NCBI GenBank assembly: GCA_000091205.1
Contig: AP006500.2
DNA from: Cyanidioschyzon merolae
Taxonomy: Eukaryota
DNA: 64,000 nucleotides
Reading direction: 5' to 3' (one strand)
The stretch's first letter is position 1; each line of letters starts with the position of its first letter. Under the pieces are notes generated by a model. That model saw only the letters and a list, made by a program, of their open reading frames with translations, was not told where the DNA came from and made no database searches. The position numbers and the translations under genes were made by a program. Positions 37,520-64,000 of the stretch are shown here, piece after piece.

Positions 37520-38800
37520 TCTTTGTGTTTCGGTGGAACATTTATTGAGATGTGCTGCCTCGGCATTCGAAGTGCGGCAATAATTGCTGACGGATTCATA
37601 TGTTGTTATAGGATTCATAGTCGACTTTTCGGATTGGCTCCTTAGATTCTTTGCTGCTGGATTTTTCCCGTCACTGTTATCAAGCTGATTCGCCACGATG
37701 TCGAATCATAATTCATAAAGTAGCGGATATACTTATCCAATTTGTACGTACAAGCCTCCACCTATCTCCTTTCCTTCAATACAGCATACCCGAATTGCCT
37801 AATCTCCATATTTTCGATGGTTGTATTCAAAACAGCTCTCGGATGTCGCAATACGCACCGCTGGACTCACGACAAAAGGTACTCAACATCGCCCCCTGAC
37901 GAGTCGTTCACAAATTCATACAGTAACCTCACTGAAGCTGTCACAAACCAATCGAATCCGTTCGAAAAATAAACCCGCCCTTCTTTGTGGCAATCGACGA
38001 AACAAAATTAAAAAGCAGCTTAATCCCTTGATGGGGCATGCCACCAGAGAAAAACATATATTTTGTTTGCGTGGAAAAGGGTATTGGATTCTAACTTGAA
38101 GGCACGAAGCAATCGCTTGAGGTGAAGAGTGCGTCAACGCTTCGCTCGAAAGGAGTTTAGATGGAGCGAGATTTCACAACTTCAACACCAGTCAAGATTT
38201 TCGCTCGGGTGCTATTTCTATGATAAACAATATCATTGTCCACAGTGACACAGAATGCGACACAGTGCGCTCGCGTGTGAAGCGGATAGAGTCCTTGCAC
38301 AGGCAATCGCCTAGAAGAAGCAAATGATTCCGGGATATGGGAGCGGGCGCGGGAATGAACGAGGGTGTCCAGGCAAGCCTTCTGTACCCATCAAGGGCAT
38401 TAACCGTGCCCTGAGACGGGTCTTCATGCGCCGTCATGTGACCATCTGTGACGGACGTGTGGTGGACATACGGAAATACCTCTAGGTCGTCACATGTCGC
38501 GGCTGCGAAGGGCACACCGATGCCGTGTACGAAGAAAATGTAACAGCAGTCGAAGCGTACGTCTCAATTTCCGCCAGTGCGGAAATACGTAGAAAACAGC
38601 AAGAAGCCTCGAATTCAGGACTTGAACGTTGCGATCAATACCCATGGACGGCTGACCACGCAGCTGGAGGAAGAAGAAAGACCGGCGTACATAAAGGCGG
38701 ATATGAAAAAAAATGGAAATGAAGCAATCGCAGTGAAAGACCCGAAAGGCAAGTATTGAAAACAATCGAAAGACCCCAAAACTTACCGGTGTAAGCACGA
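37520..38800 (+). repeat. Diverged copy (E1) of the ~1.4-kb IR-arm repeat family
   Basis: Block-wise co-linear similarity to 48336-49747 over about 1.3 kb. Examples: tcgaagtgcggcaataattgctgacggattcatatg // tcgaattgcagtaatacgggcatacagattcatata; caccgctggactcacgacaaaaggtactcaacatcgcccc // cgccgctggactggcgaagaatgctgcttgacgtcgcccc; ctttgtggcaatcgacgaaac // ctttgtggtcatcgacgaagc; ccttctgtacccatcaagggcattaaccgtgc // ccttctgtacccttcaagcgcatgaaccgagc. Confidence 0.6.
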
Positions 38801-39045
38801 ATGAGCTAGTCGGAGTTGCACCATTTCGTTCTGAAAAGTGTGGATAATTTGCACGCAGTTTGTTCCGTTGTCAACAGTGATGCCTCGCCAGATTTCTGAG
38901 CATCTCGACGATGCATGACAGCACAAGGAAGTTTCGGTGTTGCTATTCAGACTCTAATTATAAATATGACCAAGAGCACCACCGATCAAACAGCTATGCT
39001 GGCCGAGGCCGCGGAGTCCACGAATGCGGCTGACGGTGCGCTAAA

Positions 39046-42000
39046 CTCAGACCAGTGAATCCTGGAACACCTGGACCAGCAGCCCATATTTGTTTCCGAT
39101 CGTCTCTCTCGCAGATATGCAACTGACAGTGGCGTCCTTTGGATATGCAAAAAGTCGCGGATAGTCGTCCCGCTGGCACTGCTAGCTTGCGCGGAGACGG
39201 TCTTGAATGTACAAGTCATTCATTCTGTGATCAACAGGCGGGTCAGTCTCGCTTGAGCGGGTCGTTCTCCTGCCGCTCATGATCCCAAAATAGGGCCTTC
39301 CAAGTGCTATCGACATGACTGTCTCTCCATCAGTGTACGCCAGTCCACAGATGCTCAAAGAAACGGTATCAGAAAACCCACTGGATGCGAATTTTCCATA
39401 CCCTTGATATGAGCCGTGGTGAAGCGACATGGATGGGCAAAGAGAAAAAAAGGTGCCTCCCCAGGAGACCGTCACGAGCTGGACATTTTCGATTCCGCAT
39501 TGATAGGCGAACGCTTATGACAGGAGCGACCGGTACTCGCCTCTCTCGGCAACAGCTCTTTCGTGAAAAACGGAGGATCTAACCGTAGATACGCAAAGCG
39601 GTGCGAAATGCCTCTCGTAAAGCCTCGACCGGTGAGCGTAGCGACGACAACATCAGCCCCAGCGGCGATTCAAGCATGTAGTCGCCTGAGTATCGGCAAA
39701 CAGGCAGACTCAAGCAACACGTCTGCCTCCCTTCTTCGAAGCACTCTGTGGCCTCTGCTTCTCGCGTTATTCTGTCCTGCGGGTAGGCCACGTTGCTTGC
39801 TGTGACGCAAAGGCGCTCCACGAGTGCGCAGCTGAGACGAGCGTTGAGCTGGTGTTCGCTTCAGCCTGGAAGTGCACGCTCAGTCCAGTTGGAAGCGTCT
39901 TCTCTGTCCTCCGTCGCCATGCTTTCCCTCAGGATGCGTTCCATAAAAACGCTCGGATGCGTGACGCTGTCCTTGGACAAGTCGTTTTCAGTCTTCGTCA
40001 GCGTTGAACGACTCTGGTGCTGAGCGGGTCGCCTGCGGGGAGGGATCGGTGAAGCGCGCCTCAGGCGTTTGGCACGCTCGCGGCTGAGAAGCTCGTGGAA
40101 AAGGCAGCTGCGGGATCGGAAACATATATACGCGGGGAGGCAAGTTGCTGGCTCGCCGTCCATCCACGGGGTCTGACTGCCGGTGTAAGAAAATGGAAGT
40201 GGAGTGCGACGTGCACATCCACGCTACCCGCCACGAAAGGAGAATGCGAAGCAACCACCTGACAGAAAAGAGAAGGATCCCAGCCGCAAAGAGGACGACG
40301 AGAGTCAGGAAGGAAACCCTGCGCACTGGAAAGGCCAGTCCGAAACCAGCGCCTACACGTCGGTGCCAGAACGCATCAACGGAAAAAATTCTCCGAGTAC
40401 GTGAGATGCCCAGGGCTATTAGGTATTGCGTAGAATGTGGTTGTCGGAAGGCTCGCCTAGCTCTCCCCGAATGGATGCCCCTCGTGCAGCAACTGGCGGC
40501 AAGGGTTTCGGAGGCAGCGCTGCCAGCAGTTCGCATTCGTAGGGAGTTTTTGGTCAAACCCTCGAGCGACAGCACTAGGAATGCTCCGCTCCGAGCATGC
40601 CAGCGGGCCTGTTCGTGGTGTCATTGACCAATACACACGCTGGCCGGCATCCGTTTCTGCGCTGCACTACATGGTTGCTCGGCCCATGGACAGCGTAGGT
40701 GCCAGGAAAAGTTTCGCCCAAACCTCAGAACCCATAGCCAAGAGCGGGTCCGTGGCGACTACCCTACGAGGCGCACCCCAGAGGCGTTGTACTCGTTGCG
40801 TCCACAGCGTTGTGGTCGACGAAATGTTGGCGACTGACGCAAGCGGCTCTTGGGATGTCCGTGGAGGCACGTGACGAGCTGGCTCCGGACGAGAAGGTGC
40901 TGGAAGCGAGCTCGGAGATGTCGCATCGAGAACGAGCGACGCTCCAGATCGTCCGAGCTCATGGAGTAGGTTTCTGTTCCGGAGCTGGGCACGTCGTCTC
41001 GGAAGGATTACGCGGGCGTTGACCTGGCCTAACTTGCATCCTGCGCTGCTAGGTTTTCGCGAACGCGGCGCTCCACCGCAAGGCAGACCCTCTGGTCGTA
41101 TGTGAGCGCCTTTGCATCCTCAAACCCCTGGTCGATACGGTCCCCGCATTTCGGGGCAAAGCCCATGATACCACCGTGCATATTTGTGTGGTGTACGACG
41201 TCCTCAGTGGTCTACGATGTGTGCGCACGAGCAGCTAGGGGGCACTCTACCTATTTCGGGCAGAGCGTTGGCGGGGCTCGTTCATCGCCACTCGTTGGCT
41301 GGGAAAACACGGAAAGCGATGTACAGGGGCCTTGGAGACGCGCACGGCACATCAAACAGCATGCACTTTGCGAAACCCCGGCCCGCTCGGAGCAACGAGA
41401 CTCATATTCAACCGCTTACGGAAAACGAACGTGAAGGCTTCGTGGTGCGCGTGGATGCCGTTTCTGAGGGCGCCGTGGCCGTCACCGTGCCCGTTCGTCA
41501 CGGGGCAGCGCCAGAGACCTGAACGGAAAGCAAATGAGTCTGCTCCACGCCTCCAGGGCCCGGTATCATCCGGAGTTGGACGTGAACGACGCCAGCAGGC
41601 GTACCAACTCGTGGAATGACGACGTAAAGACCTGTCGTGACGCGCTGAGTACGGTATCGGGCAAAAGGAGATGCACTGCGCACCTCATTCATAACGGGTA
41701 TGAGCGACTAGATCGCTCATGCGGACGAGCCATGGCAGAGGAACGCGGGACCGAGCTCGAGTCTCCAACAGTCGCAACCGCTCGCGGGCACGAGGCGGGT
41801 ATTCGCAAGCTTCCTCAAAGCACTGGAAACGGAACTGGCCGATCGGTTGCATCTTATAAAGATAGTGCATGGCGGTGGACGCGCTCTAGTTGCAGAACTG
41901 GACTGTCGTCGATAACGCACAAGGGATCCGCGAACCGGCACTGAAGTGCTCTCGGTGATGAGCTCTGGACGAGATTCTCACATCGCGAGCACAGAGACAC

Positions 42001-42468
42001 GCTGAAACTGCCGGTGAAGACGATTTGGAAACGGAGCCAGACGTATGAGATGACGTACGCTGAGTTCATTGAGCTCCAGGTGGCAATGCACTCACAGTTG
42101 AGACGCTTGCTGTGGAGTGTCTCCATCACGAACGGGAAACGCGTCCAGTTTCTGAACCGAGATTTGAGCGCCCATATCAGCATCTGGAACTGCATCGTTC
42201 TTCAGGAGCGTCCATCGGCTTTACTTCAGGCGAGGCTTCGATTCGATTGTCTAGTATGCAGTGTGGGTATTGTGCTGGAATGCTGCGGACTCTCGATGAA
42301 AAACATCATGTATCATCAGAGCGGCGATTAAGTCCCCGCTTGGAGCAAGCCACTTGTATGGTACGGTCTGCACTGTATCAAGGCCGGACTGCCATATACC
42401 TTCGCCACGAACAATGTTCGTGGGTAATTGTGGAACACTCATCGTATTCCTTACTTGGGTATTACGGA
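39046..42468. repeat. 3.4-kb dispersed repeat R, copy 2
   Basis: Full-length direct copy of 21761-25185 with about 98-99% identity, inferred from duplicated ORF translations that differ only by point substitutions. Flanks are unrelated. Confidence 0.9.
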
Positions 42469-42784
42469 GTATAGCGCTGTAGCAAACGAGGCTGGCGCTG
42501 CAGTGCGTGGCATTCAAACATGACTCTGCGCTGGCCTTGAATTTCGTCCGGGCGGCATTCCGGTACAGTCTCGAAAACTTTCTCTGTGCAGCAGCGTGCA
42601 GCTGTCTGCAACTTTAGTTTGAGTTACCGCGCTATTACGTTCATATTCTGTACAGCACTCTTTTGCAGCGGTAGAGCTAGTTCTCTGTACAGCTGCGTAC
42701 TTTTATATATATATGAATACGCTCTGCGGGGCGAAAATGTTTCGCGAACATGAGGTAAACTCATGTCCAGTCACCGACGCCTTC

Positions 42785-43230
42785 CGGCCTTTATTGGCCG
42801 GCCCCGTGCCATCGGTGTCAGCTTCTCGTTGTTAACTTCAAGTACAAGAGGCTGCCCCAAAAAGCTCGCCCGCGTTAGCTCCTCGGGTGTTGTCTTCAGC
42901 GCCGCATATCCTTTAATATTGATGGCGGCGTTAAAGTGACTTTTCAATTACTCCCTGCGTCTAATGCCTCTGGTGGAACTCACCAATGCAGGGATTCCTC
43001 AAAATTCGTGCCCTCTGCGCTGGTACGGTATCATCATCATCCCGTCCGTTAAACACCGTTTCTCGCATACCTACCGTGTTCTTTTCCGCCCCACGGTCTG
43101 CAAGGCGAGGTCTCCTTTCGATTTTTTCCGCCAGACAGCTATGACTCGCCTCCAGGATCCCTGACAGCCGTATCAATGACGCTCCCTTCGATTTTGTATT
43201 TTTGAAAATGAACGCATTTCATATGCATCT
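42785..43230 (-). mobile_element. Degraded 3' portion of a Fanzor/TnpB-like element (RuvC-III region + downstream module)
   Basis: Minus strand encodes …GEFHQRH / (frameshift) SHFNAAINIKGYAALKTTPEELTRASFLGQPL…. This is homologous at protein and DNA level to 9334-9400, to 45560-45700 and to 58560-58720. It is interrupted by a stop and a frameshift. Confidence 0.6.
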
Positions 43231-44499: not shown

Positions 44500-45290
44500 T
44501 ACTGAACAGTGCAAGGAGAACTGCAATTACCCTGCAGGTCAGTCACACCATATTACTCGCGTGGTGGTAGAGCACTTTAAGAAAGAGTTACATGCGCTCC
44601 GCATCAAAACCCGATATTCTCAAAGAGCACTTGCGTTTAATGGTAGAGAATGACCTGTTAATCACCTGACTGAAAGCAAAAGCGAGGATCGTGGTCGCCA
44701 CCTGCTTCTCTGTTTCTCAACCGGTAGTTCATGTAATGCTGAAAAACTGGCAAACAGTCGCAAAAAATCCCTGTTCACTCAAGGCCATCTTTTTACCGAC
44801 ATCGCAGTTAAAACAAAGTTCCTGGAACGTCATTATCGGCATGAAACAGAGGGGCGTCGGTTTGTTGTTTCAGTCGATGAGACTCCCTTCGGACAAGACG
44901 GTCGGGTCGTTGATGAGTATTCGAGGTGAAGGGAGCCCATTGTCTGTGCGATCGGACTCAAAGAGAACGACGATATTATCTGTTCTAGCTGTAGTGGATT
45001 CAAGTGGCGGCCTGGGTTTTGCTGGAACAGAAGGCCCTCACAACAGCACCAACAACTTTGTCGAATCATTGAAGACTTTTCCCAGACGTCCGGCGACTTC
45101 GTTCTGTTGGACAACGTGGTACTTCGCCATTCCCGTTGCGTTCGGGCTTTTGCCGAGGCTATCGGAGTAGAGATGCTTTTCATTCCTTCGTACGCTCCGC
45201 GGTTCAACCGCATCGAAGGAGAGTTTTCTATCAAAAAAAGCAATGCACGCACCACTATTCGAATCGATGATGCGTTCAGCACACGGTGAC
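44500..45290 (+). pseudogene. Tc1/mariner (IS630-superfamily) DDE transposase remnant, frameshifted
   Basis: Across three frames: …RRFVVSVDETPFGQDG… (DE motif), …AGTEGPHNSTNNFVESLKTFPRRPATS… and …LLDNVVLRHSRCVRAFAEAIGVEMLFIPSYAPRFNRIEGEFS… (the characteristic C-terminal DNaxiH…LPpYSPdLNPIE block containing the third acidic residue). Several frameshifts. Confidence 0.65.
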
Positions 45291-45366: not shown

Positions 45367-45745
45367 GTGCGTTCATTTGAAGAAATAAAAAATCTTAGGA
45401 ATGAGCTGGGGTGTACACTTGAGAAGTTCGAGATAAAGAAACGCCAGCGGGCGCTTCGGCGAAAGAAAAATACGGAGAGCTTACAGAGCAGCATATGGCA
45501 CGAAAGGCGCAAGTTCGAATACTACTTGTACTCGGAACACGAGCGGCGGCAAGAAACGCATGGAGCTCGTGATCCGAGGCTTGAACGCTGCTATCAATAT
45601 CAGGAGATATTCTGTGTTGAAAACAAGGCCCGCAGGGATAACGCGTGCCAATTTTGTGGGATTGCCTCTCAGAGTCAAAATGCTCAAGGACGAGCTGATA
45701 CCGATAGCAGGGGGCCGGCGAAAAAGATATCGGAAGGTGTCACAA
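45367..45745 (+). mobile_element. Fanzor/TnpB-like 3' remnant, co-linear with the adjacent Tc1/mariner transposase remnant
   Basis: Plus strand encodes …LGCTLEKFE… (compare PGCTLQGVE in the 9334 copy) and, after a frameshift, TSGGKKRMELVIRGLNAAINIRRYSVLKTRPAGITRANFVGLPLRV. Compare TSDGKKRMEFVNRDFNAAINV and NAAINIKGYAALKTTPEELTRASFLGQPL in the other copies. The 3' end gataccgatagcagggggccggcgaaaaagatatcggaagg matches gacaccgatggcacggggccggccaataaaggccggaagg in the 42785 copy (read in revcomp). Confidence 0.65.
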
Positions 45746-45903: not shown

Positions 45904-47283
45904 TTGTACAGCTTTATGTGGCAGACTGGGCTGCACTCGTCGACGTCTTTATATTGGAGTTGTACGCTTGGAGCAACTGGCACTTCGACAGGAAAGCCAG
46001 CCTCGGTCGCGCACCGCTGCTCAGTCTCAGCAGCGGGCTTCCGCGCTGCCCCGATGCCGTGTATCCGTCGTGGTGTCTGCACGTCACGCACGCACTCGAG
46101 GACTTCAAATCCCTTGAAGATGCAACGGAACACTGATCCGGCGGGCAATAGCATAGGAATCGAACCGACTGTGCGAGTAGAGGACGTATACAAGTCGTTC
46201 CAAGATAAAAAGAAAAGCCTCTTCTCTTGGCGTTTTGAAGCGTTGACAGTTCCGGCTCTCAGGGGGGTGTCCCTTGACGTTTACGCTGGTGAAGTCTTCG
46301 GTTTACTTGGCCCGAACTCTTCGGGCAAGACAACGCTCTTACGTTGCATGTCGACTTTGTGCAAGCCAGATCGAGGTGCTGTGTACGTGTTAGGCAAACA
46401 TACGGTGCGAGAGTCCTTTGCGGTGCGGCATTGCATAGGAGTGGTCTTTCAAGACGCCGGTGTTGATAAAATTCTCACTGGGCGTGAGCATATGGAACTC
46501 TTTGGAAACTTGTACCACATGCCACCCGCTCATTTGCGTCGTCGCATTGATGAACTTGTCGGCATGCTAGAACTCGAGCCCTACGTGGATCGCCTAACGG
46601 GCACCTATTCGGGAGGAATCAAGAGGCGCCTCGATCTCGCTCTAGGGCTGCTGCATGAACCTTCAGTTCTGTTGCTTGATGAGCCCACGGTCGGCTTAGA
46701 TCTTAGCAGCCGGCGAGTTATCTGGAATGCTGTTCGAAAATATGCTACAGCGGGGAATACGATTGTTTTCACGTCTCACTACTTAGAAGAAGTTGAGATT
46801 CTGGCTGACCGAGTCGCTATTCTGGATGAGGGGGTCTCGATCGCGGTCGGTTCGCCGCCAGACCTGAAACGCCAAATCGGTGGTAGACGGTTCACGATTC
46901 GAGTGGAGGAGTTTTGTCCAGAAAATATTGCCCAGGCGGCTCTGGAGGCGCTACGAAGCGAGGGCATCGTAGAGAGGGCGCAGATCAATGCATTTGATTA
47001 CAATGCGCTCGAGCTATTTGTTGAGCCGGAGCTGCTGGATCAGCTAGGTATTGATCCTTCGTTGAACGAGGATGAAGCCTATTCGGTGTACGCGGAAAGA
47101 ATTCGTCAGACACTGAAAGGAAAAGGATTTGATCTCTTCGGTATTACGGAACGAGGTGTGAGTCTGAGCGATGTCTATATGTCGTTTGCTGGGCGCGATT
47201 TTCGCGCTGCAGATGAAGCCGCGCGATTGGATGCAAGCACGAAAAAGCGGAAACCAAAGCGCCGTTCCAGCTTGGAAAGCTAG
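45904..47283 (+). CDS. ABC transporter ATP-binding protein (ATPase-only, ABC-2/DrrA/CcmA-like) with C-terminal extension
   Basis: Walker A (GLLGPNSSGKTT), ABC signature (YSGGIKRRLDLA), Walker B (LLLDEPTVGLD) and H-loop (FTSHY). The probable true start is the Met at about 46120 (MQRNTDPAG…). The upstream part of the ORF overlaps the TE remnant. Confidence 0.8.
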   Translation: MYSFMWQTGLHSSTSLYWSCTLGATGTSTGKPASVAHRCSVSAAGFRAAPMPCIRRGVCTSRTHSRTSNPLKMQRNTDPAGNSIGIEPTVRVEDVYKSFQDKKKSLFSWRFEALTVPALRGVSLDVYAGEVFGLLGPNSSGKTTLLRCMSTLCKPDRGAVYVLGKHTVRESFAVRHCIGVVFQDAGVDKILTGREHMELFGNLYHMPPAHLRRRIDELVGMLELEPYVDRLTGTYSGGIKRRLDLALGLLHEPSVLLLDEPTVGLDLSSRRVIWNAVRKYATAGNTIVFTSHYLEEVEILADRVAILDEGVSIAVGSPPDLKRQIGGRRFTIRVEEFCPENIAQAALEALRSEGIVERAQINAFDYNALELFVEPELLDQLGIDPSLNEDEAYSVYAERIRQTLKGKGFDLFGITERGVSLSDVYMSFAGRDFRAADEAARLDASTKKRKPKRRSSLES

Positions 47284-48335
47284 CGTCTCGGAAACCTCTG
47301 AAGAGCAGTCCGTGATGCTGCCCGCATCAGAGGTCTATTCGAAGACAGCGGTCCCGGTAAGTGGACGCCAACACTTTTTTCGGATGCAGTTATATCCGCC
47401 AGCGCGGCTCATATAGCCGCGTACACGCGAGCACGTGGCATTTATCAATCGCAGAAAGCCGACTGGCTGCGATCGAAATTCAACTCCGTGACTGCTCTCT
47501 TGGGAGCAGTCTTTCCACTGCTTTTTTGCGCTCTTTGTATTGTCCAGGCGAGATTCACTGCAGCTCATGCGATGAACGTATGAATGGCGGCCCGCCTGGC
47601 ACCAACGCCTGCAAGCAAGAGCAACGATAGGCCGCATCCACCGTAGAACAGGCAGTACGCGCATCCTAGTAAGACCACTGCGGCTTCGAGCTACCGCAGC
47701 AGAAACTCTGTATCCGCACTAGTTACTGGACCTGGTTGAGACTTTCTCACGCAATGGTCGCCTGCATGCTGTACATTGGTCTTCCTTGTCACTGTTGCTC
47801 TCTCCTATGCACAGCAAGTGCGGGTTGGCCAGGACTTGATATGAGTCTTACTGCGGTGCTGCTGTTTCTCTCGCCGAAACGGCTCGTCTGCGTTTTTTTC
47901 TGAAAGAGCATGAGCTTTCTCATACGAAACCGTTCAGGAAACTTCACTTGAATTTTCCTGCTTTGTGAACTTATCCTCTCGGTAACAGAGGTGTTTCCTG
48001 AACAGAGCGTATCTGTAAAGCGGTGTTGCGCTATAGGACCCGGCAGGTAACCCCGGCAGCTATTGTGGAGAGTCTGTGCTGCGGGGCATAACGTCCAAGC
48101 CTGGTCGCACATCGTAACTCGTTGCGTAGATAGGTCAAAAACCTGTTTTCCTGTGTCGCTGTGAGCCTCACCTGTGCACGTTCCTGCGCAGCGGGGAATG
48201 GTATATGGGACGGCAGTGCGAGGCAGGGCAAACGAATGCGGCATTTTTCGCAGGCAACGGGGAGCCCAACCTGGCCAGACTCTACAGTCGTCAATGCTGG
48301 ACGAAACCTGGATTCTCCAAGGCTTGTACGCCGGT

Positions 48336-49747
48336 GCCAAGGTTAAAAAGGAACACTGACCTTATCGGACTGCTGCTACCTATCGATTCCTTAACCTACC
48401 TTGAATGGATGCTTGGCCTCGAAAGTCGAATTGCAGTAATACGGGCATACAGATTCATATACAGTTCTGAGAAGTTCGGTGGTCTGTTCGACTTGACTCC
48501 TTCGACGCTTTGCCGCTAGAATGCGTTACGGATCCGAAATAAAGATGGTACGCGACGCCCTCGAACAGGGTTCGTTATTCGACCTGCATCGTTGTCCAAT
48601 TCACATGTTCAACCTCAACTGTGCTGCTTTCCTTATACGCAGCAGGCTGAAAGCACGCATCCTTCAAGTTTCCGATCATTCTATTTCAAGGCGACTCGAG
48701 GGCGCAGCAGTTCGCGCCGCTGGACTGGCGAAGAATGCTGCTTGACGTCGCCCCTGAGGAAATGCTCAGAAGCTCATAGCGAAAAGTCACTGAAATTCTC
48801 ACGATAAATAATCGATTGCGTTCGAGAGTCGAATCCTCCCCTCTTTGTGGTCATCGACGAAGCAGCATTCGACGGCAGCGCAATAGATCTCACGGGAGAT
48901 GCTTTCATATGTCACCGTCTCTTCTGTTTGCATGGAAAGGGTCTTGGACTTTGAGTTGAGGCATCGCAGCGATTGCTTCCAGTAGAGCCTGCGTCACCGC
49001 TTTGCGGTAAGGGACCGTAAAAGGATCGAAATTTCTCGACTTTTACCCTAGCGAGGTGTCTCCTCCCCGCACTAGTGCCGTCGTGGGCAGCATCGCGCGA
49101 CGCAAACCCTCCGTCCAATGAACAGCGAGCGCTGGTGTTTGCATCGGGCAGAGTACTCGCGGACATGGTCGCCCAGAAGAACCCCGTGATTTAAGGGTAC
49201 AGCACCGGGCGCGGAAACCGCGGAGCGCATCCTGGGGCGCCTTCTGTACCCTTCAAGCGCATGAACCGAGCGCATGAACCGAGCGCATGAACCGAGCGCA
49301 TGAACCGAGCGCATGAACCGAGCGCATGAACCGAGCGCTGAAGCGAGCCCTCACGCGCTGCAGGGTGAGCCTCGTTGGCGAAGGAGGCGTACTCCTTATA
49401 TGCGACCATCTAAGCGCATCCATGCGTCACGCCTGTGCAGAGGGCAGCGAGACTGTGTCCAAAGAAGATGACAAGAGCAATTGAAACGCAGATCGCAACC
49501 TCAGCCTGTGCATGAAATGCGTCTAAACAGGCCGCAAGTAACGTGGCTCGGACTGTACTGCTGCCAGCAATACTCCCCCATTGGTGACAATAGAACTTCA
49601 GGGATAGGTGAGACCAGCGTATTCAAAGGCGAGCTTGAGAGCAACGAAAGAGAAGCAGTCGCTGAACGGTCAGTGAAAAGCTGGTTTTCATGGCAATTAC
49701 GAGGGACTCAAACTCTAGGGTGTGCTTGTGAGTTCCCTGAGTGCATC
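48336..49747 (+). repeat. Left arm (E2) of a 1.4-kb inverted repeat flanking tsaE
   Basis: Reverse-complement identical or near-identical to 51344-52755. ORF-track proteins are duplicated on opposite strands (for example 48521..48745+ equals 52346..52570-, and 49191..49409- equals 51682..51900+). Outer boundary is at gccaaggttaaaaagg; inner boundary at …gagttccctgagtgcatc. Confidence 0.9.
49259..49336. repeat. Tandem repeat (GCATGAACCGAGC)x6 inside the IR arm. Mirror copy at 51755-51832
   Basis: Six perfect 13-nt units read directly. In the diverged copy E1 the unit corresponds to a single-copy segment gggcattaaccgtgc. Confidence 0.95.
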
Positions 49748-49989
49748 AGTCTTATTTTTATGTGGCACATGTACAAGGCACGCTTCGTCGGAGCAGGCAA
49801 TGGAAGCTCGCCTCACGACCGACGGTGGATTCTGCAACGAGCTGCATAACGCGCTGCGGTCTGTTCGTAGCAGCATTTATGTTGCTAGTGGTGCTTTCTC
49901 GAGCTGAGGACGAAAGCTGCTTCCTTAGAAGGACACGGGGTGGCGATCGAAGTCCACGCTGAAGTCAGCGACTTCCTTCTGGCATTTCT

Positions 49990-50670
49990 ATGCGAAGAAA
50001 CACGCTGAGTGGCTTTCTCCCTCTGCTTAGGGTAAGGGCACGAAAAGCGACTGTTTCGCAACAACCCTCCTCGATGAGCGTTTTCGCACAGTACTCGTCT
50101 CAGCAGCACCAGCAGTGCTCCTCTATAGAGCGGGTGAGTTGTCGCCGTTTCCGCTTAGAGTCTCCACCTGATACTTGGAGGCTAGGCGCTGCGCTGGCTC
50201 GCCTTGCACGGCCTGGCGATGTGTTTCTGCTTCAGGGCAGCCTCGGAGCCGGAAAGACGACATTGGCTCGGGGCTTTATTCAAGAGTTTCTGAACGATCC
50301 CGAACTTGAAGTTGTCTCACCTACGTATCTTCTGGACGTGACCTATCCGGACTACGAGAACAAGGCCAAAGTTCCTGGTGTAGTTCTTCATCATCTGGAC
50401 TTGTATAGGCTGGAGAACGCTGACGATCGCCCAATTGCGGACTTTGCCGATATATTCACCCATCAAATATGCTTGGTCGAATGGCCAGAGCGCCTGGGAA
50501 AGTATTCAACACCAGAAGAATTCTTGCAGATCCGCTTCTCCTTCGTAGCGGGCGCGGATGGGCCTCGCGTTATTGAATCATCTGGTTTTGCGAGTCACAA
50601 GCACCTGGAGAATCCACGCTGGTCACAGGCACGCATCGATCAAATACAATGGCAATGTTCAGCAGCTTAG
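49990..50670 (+). CDS. tsaE: tRNA threonylcarbamoyladenosine (t6A) biosynthesis protein TsaE (YjeE-type ATPase) with N-terminal extension
   Basis: P-loop LQGSLGAGKTTLARG, SPTYLLDVTY, HLDLYRLEN and ICLVEWPE blocks match the bacterial/plastid TsaE family. A 55-60-aa Arg/Ser-rich N-terminal extension suggests organelle targeting. Confidence 0.8.
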   Translation: MRRNTLSGFLPLLRVRARKATVSQQPSSMSVFAQYSSQQHQQCSSIERVSCRRFRLESPPDTWRLGAALARLARPGDVFLLQGSLGAGKTTLARGFIQEFLNDPELEVVSPTYLLDVTYPDYENKAKVPGVVLHHLDLYRLENADDRPIADFADIFTHQICLVEWPERLGKYSTPEEFLQIRFSFVAGADGPRVIESSGFASHKHLENPRWSQARIDQIQWQCSAA

Positions 50671-51343
50671 ATATGCCGAGAGCCTCCGAAGCTTTCGAGG
50701 AGACCACCATTGCGTAGACCCTGACGCACACCTCGGGTGTGATTGGACCGGCTCTCTGTGCGTCTTCAACGCTTTTCTCGTTGCCGCAGAGACGAGCACA
50801 TATGTGGCATGGCTGTTTCATGCTGCCTCGATCTCTTATATACTGGAGTGCGAGCAGGCCCTATCATCAAGTCGACACCGTGTGCGTCGTTCTAGCGCTG
50901 CCGCTTGATGGAGTTCTCCGTAGAAAGCAGCCATGTGAACTTTCGTGGCAATGCACATATCCGTTCCGCAAGCGTGCTACTTGTTCAAACTGCTACATAT
51001 GGGAATTTTCAGTCTTTGCCGACGCATAAATCTTCGAAAGATGGACGCACATGTTAAGGAGAACGAAAGATCTTTCAAGATCCACGAAACCGCGAAATAT
51101 GAACGCGGCATTAGCAGCGTCGGAAGCAGTCTAGCCCAACGACTACCCAACGACTCTTCTGTGGTATATCTTCGAATGACTTCTGTCCATTGTCGCGTGA
51201 TAAGAGTTGATGGTATGGCAGTATCCGTAGATAATAATCACAGCGCAATGTCGTGTGTTCGACATGAGTTGCGGAGGCACCCCGCAACGTTTGTTCGTTG
51301 TCTTCGTCTCATGCTTACTCTCGTGAGAGAATAAAGTAAAGCA

Positions 51344-52755
51344 GATGCACTCAGGGAACTCACAAGCACACCCTAGAGTTTGAGTCCCTCGTAATTGCCA
51401 TGAAAACCAGCTTTTCACTGACCGTTCAGCGACTGCTTCTCTTTCGTTGCTCTCAAGCTCGCCTTTGAATACGCTGGTCTCACCTATCCCTGAAGTTCTA
51501 TTGTCACCAATGGGGGAGTATTGCTGGCAGCAGTACAGTCCGAGCCACGTTACTTGCGGCCTGTTTAGACGCATTTCATGCACAGGCTGAGGTTGCGATC
51601 TGCGTTTCAATTGCTCTTGTCATCTTCTTTGGACACAGTCTCGCTGCCCTCTGCACAGGCGTGACGCATGGATGCGCTTAGATGGTCGCATATAAGGAGT
51701 ACGCCTCCTTCGCCAACGAGGCTCACCCTGCAGCGCGTGAGGGCTCGCTTCAGCGCTCGGTTCATGCGCTCGGTTCATGCGCTCGGTTCATGCGCTCGGT
51801 TCATGCGCTCGGTTCATGCGCTCGGTTCATGCGCTTGAAGGGTACAGAAGGCGCCCCAGGATGCGCTCCGCGGTTTCCGCGCCCGGTGCTGTACCCTTAA
51901 ATCACGGGGTTCTTCTGGGCGACCATGTCCGCGAGTACTCTGCCCGATGCAAACACCAGCGCTCGCTGTTCATTGGACGGAGGGTTTGCGTCGCGCGATG
52001 CTGCCCACGACGGCACTAGTGCGGGGAGGAGACACCTCGCTAGGGTAAAAGTCGAGAAATTTCGATCCTTTTACGGTCCCTTACCGCAAAGCGGTGACGC
52101 AGGCTCTACTGGAAGCAATCGCTGCGATGCCTCAACTCAAAGTCCAAGACCCTTTCCATGCAAACAGAAGAGACGGTGACATATGAAAGCATCTCCCGTG
52201 AGATCTATTGCGCTGCCGTCGAATGCTGCTTCGTCGATGACCACAAAGAGGGGAGGATTCGACTCTCGAACGCAATCGATTATTTATCGTGAGAATTTCA
52301 GTGACTTTTCGCTATGAGCTTCTGAGCATTTCCTCAGGGGCGACGTCAAGCAGCATTCTTCGCCAGTCCAGCGGCGCGAACTGCTGCGCCCTCGAGTCGC
52401 CTTGAAATAGAATGATCGGAAACTTGAAGGATGCGTGCTTTCAGCCTGCTGCGTATAAGGAAAGCAGCACAGTTGAGGTTGAACATGTGAATTGGACAAC
52501 GATGCAGGTCGAATAACGAACCCTGTTCGAGGGCGTCGCGTACCATCTTTATTTCGGATCCGTAACGCATTCTAGCGGCAAAGCGTCGAAGGAGTCAAGT
52601 CGAACAGACCACCGAACTTCTCAGAACTGTATATGAATCTGTATGCCCGTATTACTGCAATTCGACTTTCGAGGCCAAGCATCCATTCAAGGTAGGTTAA
52701 GGAATCGATAGGTAGCAGCAGTCCGATAAGGTCAGTGTTCCTTTTTAACCTTGGC
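51344..52755 (-). repeat. Right arm (E3) of the 1.4-kb inverted repeat flanking tsaE
   Basis: Reverse complement of 48336-49747; see that feature. Confidence 0.9.
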
Positions 52756-53009
52756 GACAAAGTCGCGAAATGTGTTATCTAAACGAGAAGCGTTTTATTA
52801 TCAATATCGTCTTCGCGTACTTGTGGGTACATGAAGAACCGTCCAAATGCATCGGTGACGCAGTTGAAGAGGATATCTTTGGGCAATCAGTACTGGTCAG
52901 CGCTCGCAGCTAAAACGTTTTCCTCAATCCGATGTCTGAACGAGTTTGACTTGTACGACGCCTGGTACTGGGCGTGTTTCGTACAGAGTACTGAGCACTC
53001 TGTGATTAT

Positions 53010-54881
53010 GTGTGCTTGGGGACACGCATTTTGTTTGGAGAAACTCCTTTGCCGTGGGCGCGTGAGCTTTTTGGGACTCTGAGAACCACAGCGGACTGGA
53101 GACGTCTAGTGAACCAAAGCTCAAAAAAGCCAATCGCTCAGGTTCTTCCTACGAGGAACGGCACCAAACCGTCTGCGAGCATGGTAGACCGTAGGATAGC
53201 TAATTCAGGCCAGGTGAGGGGCCTCTCTTCTTCACTTGAGAGCACTGGTTGGAAAGCGCTTTCGAAGAGAAAACTTTGTTTGGTTATTTTCATTCTGCTT
53301 CCCCTGCTTAACATAGTACAGACACGAATTTACTCTCGGGAGCAAGCGCACCACGTACCCGCGGCAAAGTCGCCGAGACATCACGACCTGTTGTCGCTAA
53401 GAGAAATACTGCATCTTCTTGAAAAACATGAAAAAGAAATCCATGAGAAACATAGAGCATCACGCGACACGGTAACCGTCGTTCTGAACGTGTTCCTTCG
53501 ACCGGGAGCATTCCGTCGCGTCCTCGATGGAATCGGAAGTCAGACTGCTCTGCAAAGCATCACTCATGTAAACGTTCTTGCCTTGGGGTCCCCATTCGTC
53601 CATCAGTATGGGAAGCTTCTTGAAGAGTACCGCAAGACTGCGAGTTGGACATCGGAGGTTTCTATTTCCCTCGTGACATCGGAGCCGACTTTCAACCCCG
53701 GTTATTTTGGACGTTTTCTGCTGTCGATGAATCTGAATACAACTTTCACGCTCATTTTAGATGATGACGTTGTGCTGGGAGCGCGATACCTGGAGCTGTG
53801 TCTGCGTTGGGCCCGCTCTATCGACAAACATGCTGTGCTTGGCCAGCGCGGGGCGCGATATTACAGAAACGAACTTCGAAAGCGCTCATTGTTTGGCCTT
53901 GGCAAGCGCCTTTCTCCGAATAAATATCATGATTTTTTCGGGGAACACGGCCTACTGCGGGACACTGATGTGCTCTTCTCCGCTTGGTTCTTGCGGACGA
54001 AGTGGATTCTCAAGATGTTCGCGGAGGAGCCCCTCACCTGGGCCACCGCCGAGGATATCCATTTAGGTATGTTGCTTCGTCAGCGCTTCGGCATAAGAAT
54101 GGTCGCCTTACCGGTAGATCCCCAGTTGCCAGAATTTCGACTCAATCATGACCAATCCCTGGAAATAACGAACCGTTCTTGGTCGGACGAGAATACAGCA
54201 CTGGTTCGCCTTCGTGATGCAGCGGTGGATATGTGGCTTTCGAGAGAGCTTCATGGTCAACTTTTGAATCCACTGCTATACTCCTGGACCAGAAAAGATG
54301 TTTTTTGGTACAGCATGCCTGTGAAACGAGGTGCAGGAGCGCTATCTGCCTACTCGTCATCCCAACGGAAGAATCGCAGCGGACGCCTACATGTTCTGTG
54401 GCGTCCCTTTGCCTGCAAACGGCTTCGTTTCGCTCCGAACGATTCTGTCCCAATGATATCGCTGCCATACTGTCGCCGCTTACGCTACCGACGACCTCGT
54501 ATCGGCATTGCAAAGTCATACTTCGGGCTCTGGAATAGCGGTTATTTAGCGGACTGCATGTTCTGGGGTGATCGAAATGGGGCTTCATACCATGAGTTTC
54601 TGGGCTATACCCTCGATATTCGAGGCCAAGATGAATGGATCCTAGACGGGATTTTGTATGGAAATACCTACGGCCGCGTTCGGCTCTGGGATGTCCGCCG
54701 GAACGCACTGATCATCGATGAATATCTCGAACAGAACGTAACCCTGCGACTGAAGCGCGTTACAGTTGTGCCACCGACGACCATTATAGCCCTCTTTTCA
54801 GAACGTCTGGATGACGGTGTACGAGCAGCACAGCGGAAATTGTTTGATGAAATTCGAATCTTACCGAAGGATGGCACGTAA
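53010..54881 (+). CDS. Type II membrane protein, putative GT-A-fold glycosyltransferase
   Basis: N-terminal signal-anchor (LCLVIFILLPLLNIV) after a short cytosolic segment, giving Golgi-type topology. Contains a DxD-like motif (TLILDDDVVLG). The likely start is the Met MVDRRIANSG at about 53177. The family is not assignable. Confidence 0.4.
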   Translation: MCLGTRILFGETPLPWARELFGTLRTTADWRRLVNQSSKKPIAQVLPTRNGTKPSASMVDRRIANSGQVRGLSSSLESTGWKALSKRKLCLVIFILLPLLNIVQTRIYSREQAHHVPAAKSPRHHDLLSLREILHLLEKHEKEIHEKHRASRDTVTVVLNVFLRPGAFRRVLDGIGSQTALQSITHVNVLALGSPFVHQYGKLLEEYRKTASWTSEVSISLVTSEPTFNPGYFGRFLLSMNLNTTFTLILDDDVVLGARYLELCLRWARSIDKHAVLGQRGARYYRNELRKRSLFGLGKRLSPNKYHDFFGEHGLLRDTDVLFSAWFLRTKWILKMFAEEPLTWATAEDIHLGMLLRQRFGIRMVALPVDPQLPEFRLNHDQSLEITNRSWSDENTALVRLRDAAVDMWLSRELHGQLLNPLLYSWTRKDVFWYSMPVKRGAGALSAYSSSQRKNRSGRLHVLWRPFACKRLRFAPNDSVPMISLPYCRRLRYRRPRIGIAKSYFGLWNSGYLADCMFWGDRNGASYHEFLGYTLDIRGQDEWILDGILYGNTYGRVRLWDVRRNALIIDEYLEQNVTLRLKRVTVVPPTTIIALFSERLDDGVRAAQRKLFDEIRILPKDGT

Positions 54882-57800
54882 CAGGACTTAGGAGAGCACT
54901 GTCCGAGAATGCTGATCAATTTTTGAATGGGCTCCAACTATGCAAAGGGATCATCATTGATCATTTTCATGCGAATTGCACATCTGAGCCTCGTGCAGAC
55001 CATAAACTCTCAAGCCGTTTCTGCGCCCATGCTAGAATGGCATGGAACGGGTCCTCTAAATAGGGTGGATACAATAACATTTGGATCGCTTCCCATTGTC
55101 GAGAGCATCAGCACGTGCTGGCTTTTGCAACCAATATTTCCTTTTCATCTCTCTTATATCTGGCTTCAAGTGCGCAAGTCTCTCCTTTCCTGTTGCTCGA
55201 TTGACAGCGATCGAAGGACTCTGATGGAACTCTTACATTCCGGATTTCTCCGCGTCTGGCTGCTTTTCACACATATCGCACTATGGCGGAACCTGCGATC
55301 TACGCCTCACCTGCCAGCATCATTTTCTTCGTATACGGCCTCGGTGCCCCGTCGCAGCCGCGATACTCGGCCCTGTAATCAGGAATTTCCATATGTCCTC
55401 CATTTCTCTTTATCCGGGAGCCGGCCAGTGGTGCATCAAGACCTGCTTCATGACACGCTATTTGCCTTTGACGGGTACACGAGGCTCCATTCGGTGATCT
55501 GCTCTGTTTTCCCGCCCGATGGCGCATCCTATGATGAAGGACTTATTGTGAGCGATCCCCTCGGCAACTGTTCTCTCCGCTGCAAATGCCACCGCATTCT
55601 CTTCACTCGATAGCTTTGCATCTTTTCCCATGCGCGCTCGTCGTTGAATAATTACTCTTCTCACAAAAGTGCAGACGTGCGTGGCTGGATGCGAAGTTTT
55701 GTAGCCACTCGTAACCATCTTGTGCCCACATATTCCATCTGCGTGCGTTCATACGGCAAAGGGTTCCCAAACTCCCTTCTGTTTCGCCCGCTCGCTCATC
55801 GCGCAATGCCCACATTCGTTCCCTACCAGTGAAACAAATATTGTGGGTACCCGAATAGAGCGTACGGATATGGTTAGAAGTCAGAGACTTCGAAATTTAT
55901 GGCCCCAGATCCTCTTCAGTTATGACGGGGAGGCTTCAGGGTCAGACCCTCTTTCGAGTCTCACGGAGGCGCAGAAATTATTATCCGCGCTCCCTCTGTC
56001 CAGGCCGATACGGATTATATCGGGGAACAAGTTCGCGAATCCATGTATTTGAATGCCCTTTGTTTCTCCGCGTTTTTGCCTTCTGAACAGTGTGTCTTTG
56101 AGGTCCGAGGGGGCCTTTAAGAGTGGGGGACATTCTGAATTGATGAGAATGCATAAATCGATGCCAAGGGACACGGAAAAGGACAATAAGTTTCCAAGCA
56201 GTCGTGCGACCACCCCGCTCCTCCGATTTTTCTTTCCCTTCGCATCTTTCTCTGCAATCCGTCGCTTTTCCTATTTCCAGGTGTTCTTGAGGGTCTCCGC
56301 AGCTCTGAGAGATAAGAATGTAGTTTGCTTGATGAACTTCATATCGTCCATCACGACCTTTGATTTTTTGACGCTCGTGTTCTGTATCGTCCCCTTCCGC
56401 TCCGCTCTCGCACGGGCGGTGCCTCCATAACGAGACGCAAATAGGGCTCCTCGAGGACTGGAAACTAGGAAGACAGAGATGCTTTTATATAAGGTGAAAA
56501 TTTCTTCCTCGTATCCTCTCAAACAGCACTAGAGACGCATAAGCGCCATCGCATTCTTGTGCAGGCTACTTCCGAGCTGTAAATCCATTTGCTTCTCGGC
56601 ACCTGGGCCTTGGGGAATACCGGACAGCGATTGATCATGCTCTCTATTCTCCGAGCCGATGAGTCTGGACGAAGCGCTGGTTATAAAGAGCTCCTTCTTA
56701 CTGTCCAGAGTCGTGACCAAGTCGTCAACCATATGTCTTTACGTTATCGCATGCTTGAGGTACTGGTAGAGATGGGCTCTGGCATGGTGCCGGATCATCG
56801 TGCATATCGACTCCCAAGTGCTTTACGAGTTATCCTGGCCGCTTTGAGTTACCAAGATACGAAGAGTTTCAAATGCTATGAATGCATTCAGCTGGGAAAC
56901 TGAAGTGCATTCAGCGTCGATGAACTCACGCAGCCGAGGAGATGGATCTTGTATGCACTCGTGGAGAATGGCAACTAAAAAGGCTGTCTGAGTCCATAGC
57001 GCCTCCCTGAAGTCGCCAAATTTTAGAAGGTCCTCAGCACTCTCGAGTTACACAGTCTTGATTGTGATTTAAGAGTACTGCGGGAGCTAGCTACAAATGA
57101 GAGAGGTTTTCCCGTATGCGAGCTATGCGTTTAGGCAGGAGAAAGTACGTTCTTAACATTCCCTTCAGACCGACGTGGATTAGAGCAGCAATGAGCGCAG
57201 CCGCTTGTGCGAGAGAACAGGCGGACCATAGGCTTCGTACATGAAGGTGCCCTGTCTGAGAGGGGTATATTTCTGGAGAACCGGTACGCACATCTTTTCA
57301 AAGCGCTCGAGGCTTGAATAATTGCTCTTCCAGAGCTTTCCCCGGCAGAACATATGTCCCTGTGCTGGGTGCTTCTTTTGATGAACACGCTTGAGATATA
57401 CGTTCCTCATGCCTTGTTCATCTTTTTCTGATACCGCCTTGGAAAGTCGCCATCCGCAAATGGGAAAGATTTAAGGAAAACAAGTGCCGAAGAACTTAGC
57501 GTGTTCAGTCGCGGAGCCCATAGCACCGAGCACCAGTTCGTGTCGAGAACAATCCGATTTTCTGAAGCTTGTATTTGTTTTCCTGAATCTTTTCTTCGCG
57601 GCCTTGAAGACGTCTTCAATCGGGTCGGGCCCTCTAGACTATGTGGCAGTGCATGAAATATCCAATCCTCTGTTCTCTGCTGTTTTCCAAACAGAGTAGG
57701 ATTTCAGAACGCGATGTTGTTCAGAGTGAAACGAGTATCGGAGGGAAAATCTAGGTTGCTGACAATGTCGACCAAGTTTGCTCCTTCCAGGCTCACTTTG

Positions 57801-58549
57801 TGCAAAGCGGAGACGTAGAATTCCATGGAAATGATTGCAGCAGTGATTGGAGTTCGAACCCAGCATCCGTTTCCATGCAAGCAGAACAGACGGGATCCTG
57901 TAACTGCACATCTCGTAAGAGTAACTGGGCCACATTTGAATGGCGTTTCACTGATGGTAATGAAGAGAGGTGGATTCGACGTGCAAAATGAATCAATCAT
58001 GTGAAGAGGTAATTTGATTGAATTTTCTGCATGAGCTTGTGAGCAAAACGTGAATGAACGACATCGAGTTTTTTACTCGTCTATCCATCAGAGCGAATCT
58101 TGTGCCCACGTGTAGCCCAGAAACAGAACTTTCGAGTTCTTGAACACTCCGGAATTCGAGCATCCTGGTCATAAGGGAAATAGAAGAGTGAAGGGATGCA
58201 CGTATGAACTGTTTCATGATTTCGTATATTTTACAGACCCTTGTTTTACGACATCGCGGTTCTGCTTAATTTCGGTCATTCAACGAATTGCACCGGTAAA
58301 AAGTGGAAGGAACCACTCCGGAAAGAAAATCGAGAACTCTTAAACTACGTATGAATCCGTAAAATTTTAGTCATGATATTCGAATGTCGACAATGTTCAC
58401 CTGAAACATTTTCGGAGAAAAACAAAAGGTATGAGCAGACCGAGCTGTTCAGTGTTCTGTTCTAACCTGACACTGGTGTATATGTATGTTCAGTAAAACA
58501 ATAAACTTTCAAGGACCCTAGAGTGTCTATACACACCCAATCACATACG

Positions 58550-59040
58550 CCTCCCAGCATGTTTTGGCCGGTCTCCTGCTATCGGCCTCAGTTTCTCTTT
58601 TTACACGTCGACCCTGAGAGGCTGTCCCACAAAGTTTGCCTGCGTCAGCTCTTCGCGTCTCGTCTTCAGCGCCACACATCGTCTGACATTGACGGCGGCG
58701 TCTTATTCTCGGCTTAGAAAATCCTTGGGTTTATGGCGATTGGTTGAGGTCACTACTGCAAGGAATCGCAGAACAAGCGCCCTCTGTGCCACTGTACTCT
58801 CGTTATCGTCTCTTCGGGCGAAAAACTTTTCTCGCCTGCCTCCTCTTTTCCTCATCCTCTTCGTCACTTGCTCGTCTTCACTCGATGGTCAGGGACGGGA
58901 GGATCTTGAAGCTTCTCCGACATCAGGCAATGACGGCCCTGCAAAATCCCTGACTTCCATATCCATACCTCTAACTTGGATTTTGTACTTTTTAAAAATG
59001 ACGTACTTCGAGCTCATTTGCTATAAACCGCGAAAAGGCA
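58550..59040 (-). mobile_element. Degraded Fanzor/TnpB-like 3' remnant
   Basis: Minus strand encodes DAAVNVRRCVALKTRREELTQANFVGQPLRVDV*. About 450 bp of DNA are similar to 42785-43230, for example ggccggtctcctgctatcgg // ggccggccccgtgccatcgg, and atccctgacttccatatccatacc…gattttgtactttttaaaaatgac // atccctgacagccgtatcaatgac…gattttgtatttttgaaaatgaac. Confidence 0.55.
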
Positions 59041-63228: not shown

Positions 63229-64000
63229 CACAGATGCTCAAAGAAACGGTATCAGAAAACCCACTGGATGCGAATTTTCCATACCCTTGATATGAGCCGT
63301 GGTGAAGCGACATGGATGGGCAAAGAGAAAAAAAGGTGCCTCCCCAGGAGACCGTCACGAGCTGGACATTTTCGATTCCGCATTGATAGGCGAACGCTTA
63401 TGACAGGAGCGACCGGTACTCGCCTCTCTCGGTAACAGCTCTTTCGTGAAAAACGGAGGATCTAACCGTGGATACGCAAAGCGGTGCGAAACGCCTCTCG
63501 TAAAGCCTCGACCGGTGAGCGTAGCGACGACAACATCAGCCCCAGCGGCGATTCAAGCATGTAGTCGCCTGAGTATCGGCAAACAGGCAGACTCAAGCAA
63601 CACGTCTGCCTCCCTTCTTCGAAGCACTCTGTGGCCTCTGCTTCTCGCGTTATTCTGTCCTGCGGGTAGGCCACGTTGCTTGCTGTGACGCAAAGGCGCT
63701 CCACGAGTGCGCAGCTGAGACGAGCGTTGAGCTGGTGTTCGCTTCAGCCTGGAAGTGCACGCTCAGTCCAGTTGGAAGCGTCTTCTCTGTCCTCCGTCGC
63801 CATGCTTTCCCTCAGGATGCGTTCCATAAAAACGTTCGGATGCGTGACGCTGTCCTTGGACAAGTCGTTTTCAGTCTTCGTCAGCGTTGAACGACTCTGG
63901 TGCTGAGCGGGTCGCCTGCGGGGAGGGATCGGTAAAGCGCGCCTCAGGCGTTTGGCACGCTCGCGGCTGAGAAGCTCGTGGAAAAGGCAGCTGCGGGATC
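63229..64000. repeat. 3.4-kb dispersed repeat R, copy 3 (lacks first ~300 bp; runs off window end)
   Basis: Matches 39346-40120 and 22063-22840 nearly base for base. Begins at cacagatgctcaaagaaacggtatc…. Confidence 0.9.

Follow-up and report, generated by a model that had tools for sequence, protein, structure and literature searches.

Two inverted copies of an old, dead transposon family flank a resident tsaE gene in Cyanidioschyzon merolae

In a 64-kb stretch of nuclear DNA (64,000 nt of contig AP006500.2, hereafter the window) from Cyanidioschyzon merolae 10D, a haploid red alga with a 16-Mb genome, a perfect inverted repeat with arms of 1.4 kb brackets tsaE, a single housekeeping gene of bacterial type for tRNA modification. 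We find that the two arms are near full-length inverted copies of one old and dead transposon family of ~1.45 kb with terminal inverted repeats (TIRs), and that tsaE sits in its ancestral place and, in the assembly, in its ancestral orientation. This settles the identity of the repeat (a gene that stayed in its place, between two dead copies of a transposon) and removes both the capture of tsaE by a composite transposon and its horizontal transfer from the possible histories of the locus. Though the arms are identical to each other, their sequence is a relic as old as the other copies of the family. We lean, with moderate confidence, to the view that two resident old insertions had their interiors homogenised by gene conversion.

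The repeat and its element family

Compared base by base, the two arms (Table 1) are exact reverse complements over 1,412 nt, with 0 mismatches, and a reverse complement of this length and perfection excludes a chance origin. A sequence-only reading of the window had described a near-perfect repeat at these coordinates, which are exactly right, and had proposed that the identity of the arms be measured exactly: it is 100%. A repeat finder calls slightly longer arms (48336-49758 and 51333-52755), there being 4 mismatches within the 11 nt directly inward of the exact tract; beyond the arms, no similarity between flank and flank was detected on either side, the scores of local alignments being those of shuffled sequence. 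A scan of 47000-54000 against Rfam returned zero matches and a tRNA scan of the locus was empty, so that nothing suggests an RNA gene in the arms.

Copies of the arm sequence were surveyed within the window and on related metagenomic contigs by tblastx, blastn and nhmmer. The window has at least six others, and a metagenomic contig of Cyanidiales (L004) has one more; pairwise nhmmer matches to the other copies span nearly the length of the arm, from arm positions ~-10 to 13 at one end to 1353 to 1479 at the other. The same reading had suggested that the arms could be two inverted insertions of one mobile element, and had raised as the alternative a local palindrome unrelated to any other copy; the diverged family copies elsewhere in the window support the view that both arms belong to one mobile-element family. 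The family is dense here (~7 of the ~20 intergenic spacers of the window are occupied), and the presence of two copies in adjacent spacers is therefore unremarkable. The two partial copies of Table 1 form a second inverted pair, ~0.9 kb apart, with ~225 nt of homologous positions, of which no more than short stretches can be aligned (78-82% identity); these two copies are not homogenised.

The consensus of the family has TIRs, CTCCACCAGTGTCAGATTAGAATAGAAC against the reverse complement of the 3' end, CTACACCCATGTCAGAATAAAATGGAAC, which agree at 22 of 28 positions without gaps, a score reached by one in 2,000 shuffles; within single decayed copies they are only weakly visible. At its 5' end the perfect tract leaves out the first ~10 nt of the TIR, and at its 3' end it reaches only as far as the inner edge of the other TIR. 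In the left copy, the family ends of ~28 nt lie at 48326-48353 and 49750-49777. The exact termini cannot be fixed at this divergence, so that no TA target-site duplication is assigned.

The two 3' tails just outside the perfect tract are only ~50% identical to each other. They were scored with a position weight matrix (PWM) of the 26 positions past the boundary of the perfect repeat, built from non-arm copies only, which were aligned without the arms. The test on which we relied is anchored by position and has leave-one-out controls, in which true members reach 6-25 bits. The right copy scores well within this range and the left copy below it (Table 1). Three of the seven pairwise alignments of the left copy extend past the perfect boundary, and its tail is probably homologous to that of the family, with small indels. 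A private tail of the family type next to a shared interior indicates that at least the right site, and probably both, own a complete old element.

Each arm also embeds a tandem array of a 13-nt unit, AGCGCATGAACCG, with 7.2 copies according to Tandem Repeats Finder (TRF), 6 of them perfect units. The sixfold 13-mers reported earlier at 49259-49336 and 51755-51832 are these same arrays, in a slightly different phase. Other copies of the family have a single unit at the matching position; the arm alone has expanded it from 1 to 6, a gain of 65 nt that shifted the old reading frame.

Coding content of the element

All frames of all copies carry stop codons, and Pfam scans yielded no useful match when run on the raw six-frame translations, with stops masked, of the arm and of three paralogues. 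Homology becomes visible only after a majority consensus has been taken over the copies, which brings back a long open reading frame (ORF). The C-terminal 290 aa of the consensus retrieve a set of metagenomic proteins (P0121-P0129) with E=6e-38 to 8e-12, and tblastn with one of them, P0123, finds the consensus at E=2.9e-40 and the arm itself (49123-49272) at E=6.4e-11. These proteins carry the motifs GLDPGR, CxxC...CxxC and RNRDFNAAINI, and several match the Cas12f1-like TNB domain of Pfam (PF07282). In the consensus, the zinc finger and RuvC-III motif read KCHGC...LCMKC...NRDFNAAINI, and PF07282 is matched at E=0.0013, under the gathering score; the homologues P0131, P0132 and P0140 pass it. 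In the arm, the RuvC-III motif has decayed to GSDCTAASN, with stops nearby. An AlphaFold model of P0123 (mean pLDDT 58, core 70-89) has as its best match in the PDB the Fanzor of Spizellomyces punctatus, SpuFz (9cey/8gkh, E=3.4e-7), followed by Cas12f; PDB searches by sequence, with the consensus and with a profile of the homologues, gave no relevant match.

The organisation of the whole ORF can be read from P0129 (L003 516-1865, from a Logan assembly), an uninterrupted ORF of 449 aa with helix-turn-helix (HTH), DDE_3 and Cas12f1-like TNB domains, with which the consensus is collinear end to end; the equivalent of its start is an ATG at 48409 in the left copy. Residues 1-239 of P0129 match complete IS630/Tc1-like transposases, such as P0130 (321 aa, 49% identical), and residues 232-434 match Fanzor1 C-termini, such as P0131; of the 150 best matches from a search of 1.84 billion representative proteins, P0129 alone covers both halves. 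The HTH and DDE_3 homology of the N-terminal half is also seen between P0130 and copy p15 of the family (E=1.6e-5). The DDE_3 domain of P0129 covers only profile positions 3-93 of 146, and the region of the third acidic residue, present in the complete relative P0130, is missing: after DNASIHK comes Fanzor sequence. The N-terminal part of Fanzor, with WED/REC and the RuvC-I aspartate (GxDPG), is missing in the arm family, which has the HTH and DDE_3 segment instead. Looked at as a possible Fanzor gene, the arm has no intact ORF (multiple stops in all three frames, frameshifts and the 65-nt array insertion), and an omega RNA at its 3' end, for which only the Rfam scan of 47000-54000 was run, is not seen.

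Judged by these homologies, the ancestral ORF is an HTH and the first two-thirds of an IS630/Tc1-like DDE_3 domain joined to the C-terminal RuvC/zinc-finger half of Fanzor1. The fusion most likely originated, as far as sequence can tell, when a Tc1/IS630-type element with both genes on it lost an internal segment. A TIR-bearing deletion-fusion of IS630/Tc1-like and Fanzor1 parts, ~1.45 kb in size, would help to fill in the picture of the Fanzor elements of C. merolae, whose classification is poor.

The copy that is split in two halves (p57 and p55 in Table 1) breaks at the DDE_3/Fanzor junction, at arm position ~780. We considered whether the gap of ~2 kb between p57 and p55 holds the undeleted parental element, and dropped the idea: neither a transposase C-terminus nor a Fanzor N-terminus is found there. 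Canonical Fanzor1 relics do occur in the window, at 29939-31143 (+), with the RuvC-I motif IDPGRTNL and with NRDFNAAIN kept, and at 9277-10542 (-), with the RuvC-I motif GADPGN, NRDFNAAIN and an open N-terminal ORF of 310 aa (9610-10542). A further relic, at 45092-45250 (+), corresponds to residues 218-270 of P0130 (E=8.7e-5), which belong to the C-terminal catalytic region of that complete DDE_3 transposase.

The tsaE locus and the identity of the arms

That tsaE is the sole supported gene of the spacer, as was proposed earlier from the letters, agrees with its strong Pfam match (Table 1), and a protein of C. merolae 10D matches the product of this ORF at 100% identity. Its nearest relatives are the TsaE of other Cyanidiophyceae, with 51-58% identity. 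An N-terminal extension of ~55 aa suggests organelle targeting, as a prediction from sequence.

The surroundings of the gene are conserved. Cyanidiococcus yangmingshanensis (L001) has, in succession, USP7(-), ABC(+), TsaE(+) and a 579-aa gene(+). A metagenomic Cyanidiales lineage (L005-L008) shows ABC(+) and TsaE(+), then genes of 585 aa (+) and 448 aa (-), and an RRM gene(-). The order and orientations of the ABC gene, TsaE and the next gene in the window are those of both. Cyanidium caldarium (L002) likewise has a (+)-strand gene, of 520 aa, after TsaE(+), but upstream it has GST genes in place of the ABC gene. The downstream gene thus has counterparts at the same position and on the same strand, of 579-585 aa in L001 and L005-L008 and of 520 aa in L002, orthology being judged by position, strand and size. 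The ORF of the upstream ABC ATPase is listed from a TTG, and its real start is probably a later ATG.

None of these three relatives has an inverted repeat around TsaE, and no element homology was detected at their TsaE loci: when the arms and the intergenic DNA are compared with the orthologous loci, only the TsaE coding sequence aligns. The intergenic spacers around tsaE are 2,707 and ~2,340 nt long here versus 1,186 and 935 nt in Cyanidiococcus and 1,341 and 732 nt in the metagenomic lineage, an excess of roughly one arm on each side. Since order and orientation are conserved in relatives without the repeat, tsaE is ancestral at this site, and was neither captured nor transferred.

This bears directly on the history that the sequence-only reading had thought conceivable, in which tsaE was acquired by transfer and captured by a composite transposon that moved as a unit. 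Two inverted TIR elements with an IS630/Tc1-like remnant do bracket a single gene of bacterial type, as such a history would have it. The orientation of tsaE and its downstream neighbour are, however, the same in three lineages of Cyanidiophyceae (and the ABC gene in two), all of them without the element at this locus, the closest relatives of the protein are found in the same group, and no second copy of the composite is known. The ORFs of the element are dead and its transposase part is without the third catalytic region; elements so truncated, and as old as their family, make mobility of a composite at the present day very unlikely. We reject capture and recent horizontal transfer on synteny and on the relatives of TsaE, and find the composite transposon scarcely credible.

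The age of the arms can be judged against the other members of the family. Identity between the arm and any one of these is 55-60%, and among themselves they are 55-61% identical; with a consensus from which the copy in question is left out, the arm shares 70% identity and the other copies 67-70%. Stops inside conserved motifs of the arm (PVI*GYSTGRGN and GRK*RGSDCTAASN, asterisks marking the stops), together with several frameshifts, are those of an old dead relic.

Gene conversion between two old insertions is the history that we favour. One copy of the element would have inserted in the spacer upstream of the resident tsaE and another in the spacer downstream. While the rest of the family drifted to ~58% pairwise identity, intrachromosomal gene conversion would have homogenised the interiors of these two copies, 1.6 kb apart, and the outermost TIR segments would have stayed diverged where homology runs out. 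Homogenisation may have been continuous since insertion, which would call for two near-simultaneous insertions, or it may have been one recent event, which would mean conversion between diverged copies. Private tails next to an identical interior are expected on this account because conversion cannot run right up to the point where homology ends. A fresh duplication fits less well, since it should leave either the same tail at both sites or unrelated sequence in its place. C. merolae integrates DNA via homologous recombination (PMC3764038, PMC8504449), so that the machinery for conversion is present.

The chief competitor is a recent inverted duplication of a single old relic across tsaE, either by mobilisation in trans by the transposase of another element or by a template switch during replication or repair, the arms then being identical simply because they are young. 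Identity over the whole 1,412 nt, down to an equal copy number of the unstable 13-mer array, is what such an event would leave, and so are boundaries that are sharp and without any gradient of divergence; the family homology of the left tail is only marginal, and the 3.4-kb repeat at 99% identity described below indicates that this region does contain duplicates that are young or homogenised. Yet the right copy owns 26 nt of family-type 3' end unlike those of the left copy (p=3.2e-4), and a random segment is unlikely to start within ~10 nt of the 5' end of an element and to end just where its 3' TIR begins. The arm is, moreover, as diverged from the consensus as every other copy, and the transposase part of the family is truncated, which does not point to a recently active lineage. 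We regard a recent duplication as unlikely, though far from negligible.

An artefact of clone-based assembly or finishing, with one of the arms unreal or the arms less alike in the cell than in the assembly, would also produce perfect identity, and removal of either arm would bring the intergenic lengths near those of the relatives. Each arm lies, however, within unique flanks of its own, both end at the boundaries of an element and not at arbitrary points, and the right junction enters an element-type end that is absent from the left copy, which mis-joined reads would not give. The genome of C. merolae 10D is, in addition, a finished one. All this makes an artefact quite improbable.

Several points nevertheless weigh against conversion between two old insertions. 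Conversion is what we infer, and was not observed. Support for a family tail on the left copy is weak: the ungapped test gives p=0.024, and a gapped one with free ends gives p=0.12 but has little power, even true members reaching only p ~0.03. Should the left copy have no such tail, it may have been copied recently from the right one, with a slight truncation at the 3' end. In the PWM test of the outer flanks, neither copy shows significant homology to the family. The fall from 100% to ~50% identity is abrupt, whereas continuous erosion might predict a gradient, and the arms do not show the enrichment in GC that would suggest biased gene conversion, GC content being uninformative here. The copies compared are those of the window, and near-identical ones elsewhere would favour recent transposition. 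Finally, the absence of the element in the relatives could reflect complete decay, since the species are distant (their TsaE are 51-58% identical); an ancient shared insertion decayed beyond recognition in the relatives is conceivable, though the shorter spacers there argue against it.

With exact inverted arms of 1.4 kb only 1.6 kb apart, a crossover could plausibly invert the spacer, as the sequence-only reading had proposed, and the recombination that homogenises the arms might at times be resolved in this way, flipping the 1.6-kb segment with tsaE. A functional switch regulating tsaE or its neighbours could be suspected from an exact inverted repeat around one gene in a host proficient in homologous recombination. 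The locus, however, is without a site-specific recombinase gene, the arms are pseudogenised transposon copies, and the relatives do without the repeat. As the arms are identical, the same 1.4 kb lies on both sides of tsaE in either orientation, so that inversion would be nearly neutral and little regulatory change is to be expected; we consider a switch very improbable. A bolder proposal is that conversion has kept the two relics identical through ~40% of family divergence and that the essential tsaE flips continually, both isomers being present in cultures. We put this forward only as a tentative idea.

If gene conversion is the true cause, the locus would be a natural reporter of intrachromosomal recombination in a model alga that relies on homologous recombination; if conversion has been continuous, it would represent, in a haploid alga, a miniature of the concerted evolution of Y-chromosome palindromes.

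Other features of the window and known systems

Table 1. Coordinates of the repeat, of the element copies and of the neighbouring genes in the window
Feature	Position	Strand	Basis
Left arm, exact repeat, interior of left element copy	48336..49747	+ (decayed ORF reads +)	reverse complement of 51344-52755; element-family homology
Right arm, exact repeat, interior of right element copy	51344..52755	- (decayed ORF reads -)	reverse complement; element-family homology
Unique spacer between arms, 1,596 nt; segment to invert upon arm crossover	49748..51343	.	between exact arms
Left element copy, TIR to TIR, ends +/- ~6 nt	48326..49777	+	family homology at arm positions ~-10 to ~+1433; profile alignment 48334-49765
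Right element copy, TIR to TIR, ends +/- ~6 nt	51314..52765	-	profile alignment 52751-51316; nhmmer to arm positions 1426-1479
Left copy 3' terminal segment, outside perfect repeat	49748..49773	+	PWM -3.5 bits, p=0.024
Right copy 3' terminal segment (3' TIR), outside perfect repeat	51318..51343	-	PWM 14.0 bits at offset 0, empirical p=3.2e-4
13-nt tandem array, 7.2 copies, left arm	49256..49348	+	TRF, period 13
Mirror 13-nt array, right arm	51743..51835	-	TRF, period 13
Element copy	~2146-3504	-	tblastx, blastn, nhmmer
Element copy	~15227-16594	-	tblastx, blastn, nhmmer
Element copy	~37477-38803	+	tblastx, blastn, nhmmer
Element copy in two halves (p57, p55), ~2.06 kb apart	57679-58482 and 55024-55618	-	nhmmer
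Partial element copy	30577-31143	+	tblastx, blastn, nhmmer
Partial element copy	29436-29664	-	tblastx, blastn, nhmmer
tsaE coding sequence, 226 aa, P-loop GSLGAGKTT intact	49990..50670	+	Pfam TsaE E=1e-27
Upstream neighbour, ABC-type ATPase, synteny anchor	45904..47283	+	Pfam ABC_tran; same neighbour and orientation in L001, L005
Downstream neighbour, conserved, ~580-620 aa, without Pfam domain, synteny anchor	53010..54881	+	position, strand, size

The other ORFs of the window are ordinary eukaryotic genes, among them USP7, a Na/H exchanger and a DEAD helicase. A single ORF of 1,145 aa at 17900-21337 (+) has enoyl-CoA hydratase, 3-hydroxyacyl-CoA dehydrogenase and thiolase domains, so that, from its domain content, the whole beta-oxidation cycle appears to be fused in one polypeptide. 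Direct repeats of ~3.4 kb at 21760-25185 and 39045-42468, 17 kb apart, are 99.0% identical, and a third copy (63229-64000, 98.6-99.4%) runs off the end of the window. This repeat has no ORF longer than ~200 aa, and the one ORF tested had no Pfam match; it may be a further homogenised repeat, or else an element that is young and non-coding. A further dispersed repeat family, with 67-74% identity, adjoins several of the element copies (42767-43211, 58537-59001, 45401-45741 and 9269-9548).

Among known elements, the closest comparison is with CMe-1A, an old Fanzor1 family of C. merolae with ~150 copies that are ~80% identical to a consensus of ~3 kb, and that was reported without TIRs (Bao and Jurka 2013, PMC3627910). 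The organism is the same, and the age of CMe-1A (~80% to the consensus) agrees with the 55-61% pairwise identity found here. The C-terminal half of the arm family shares with Fanzor1 the TnpB/Fanzor zinc finger and the RDFNAAINI motif of RuvC-III, and the model of a homologue matches SpuFz. The unit described here is, however, ~1.45 kb long and not ~3 kb, it has an IS630/Tc1-like HTH and partial DDE_3 in place of the Fanzor N-terminus with RuvC-I, and it has TIRs at the level of the consensus; either the family is a different one, or TIRs can be seen only in a consensus. This likeness was judged from the published description, not from the Repbase consensus, and does not establish that CMe-1A and the arm family are the same.

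With IS630/Tc1/mariner elements the arm family has in common the N-terminal HTH and DDE_3 homology and TIRs of ~28 nt; it differs from them in that DDE_3 ends after the second catalytic Asp and is followed by the Fanzor half, and in that all copies in the window are decayed. Composite transposons of the Tn5/Tn10 type consist of two inverted IS copies around cargo, and the layout here is similar: two inverted TIR copies with a DDE-type remnant flank one cargo-like gene of bacterial type. In contrast to Tn5/Tn10, the gene is at its ancestral site, the elements are inactive, the unit has never been seen to move, and the whole lies in a eukaryotic nuclear chromosome.

In human Y-chromosome palindromes and in plastid inverted repeats, the arms stay alike by gene conversion, and a crossover inverts the spacer. 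The tsaE locus resembles them in having near-identical arms while comparable unlinked sequence diverges, a unique spacer and sharp boundaries. It differs in that its 1.4-kb arms are dead transposons and not genes, in that conversion is deduced from a single genome, and in that, unlike these systems, the repeat offers no apparent selective benefit. On balance, we are inclined to see the locus as a further example of a known structure, in which transposon copies form an inverted repeat that recombination keeps identical.

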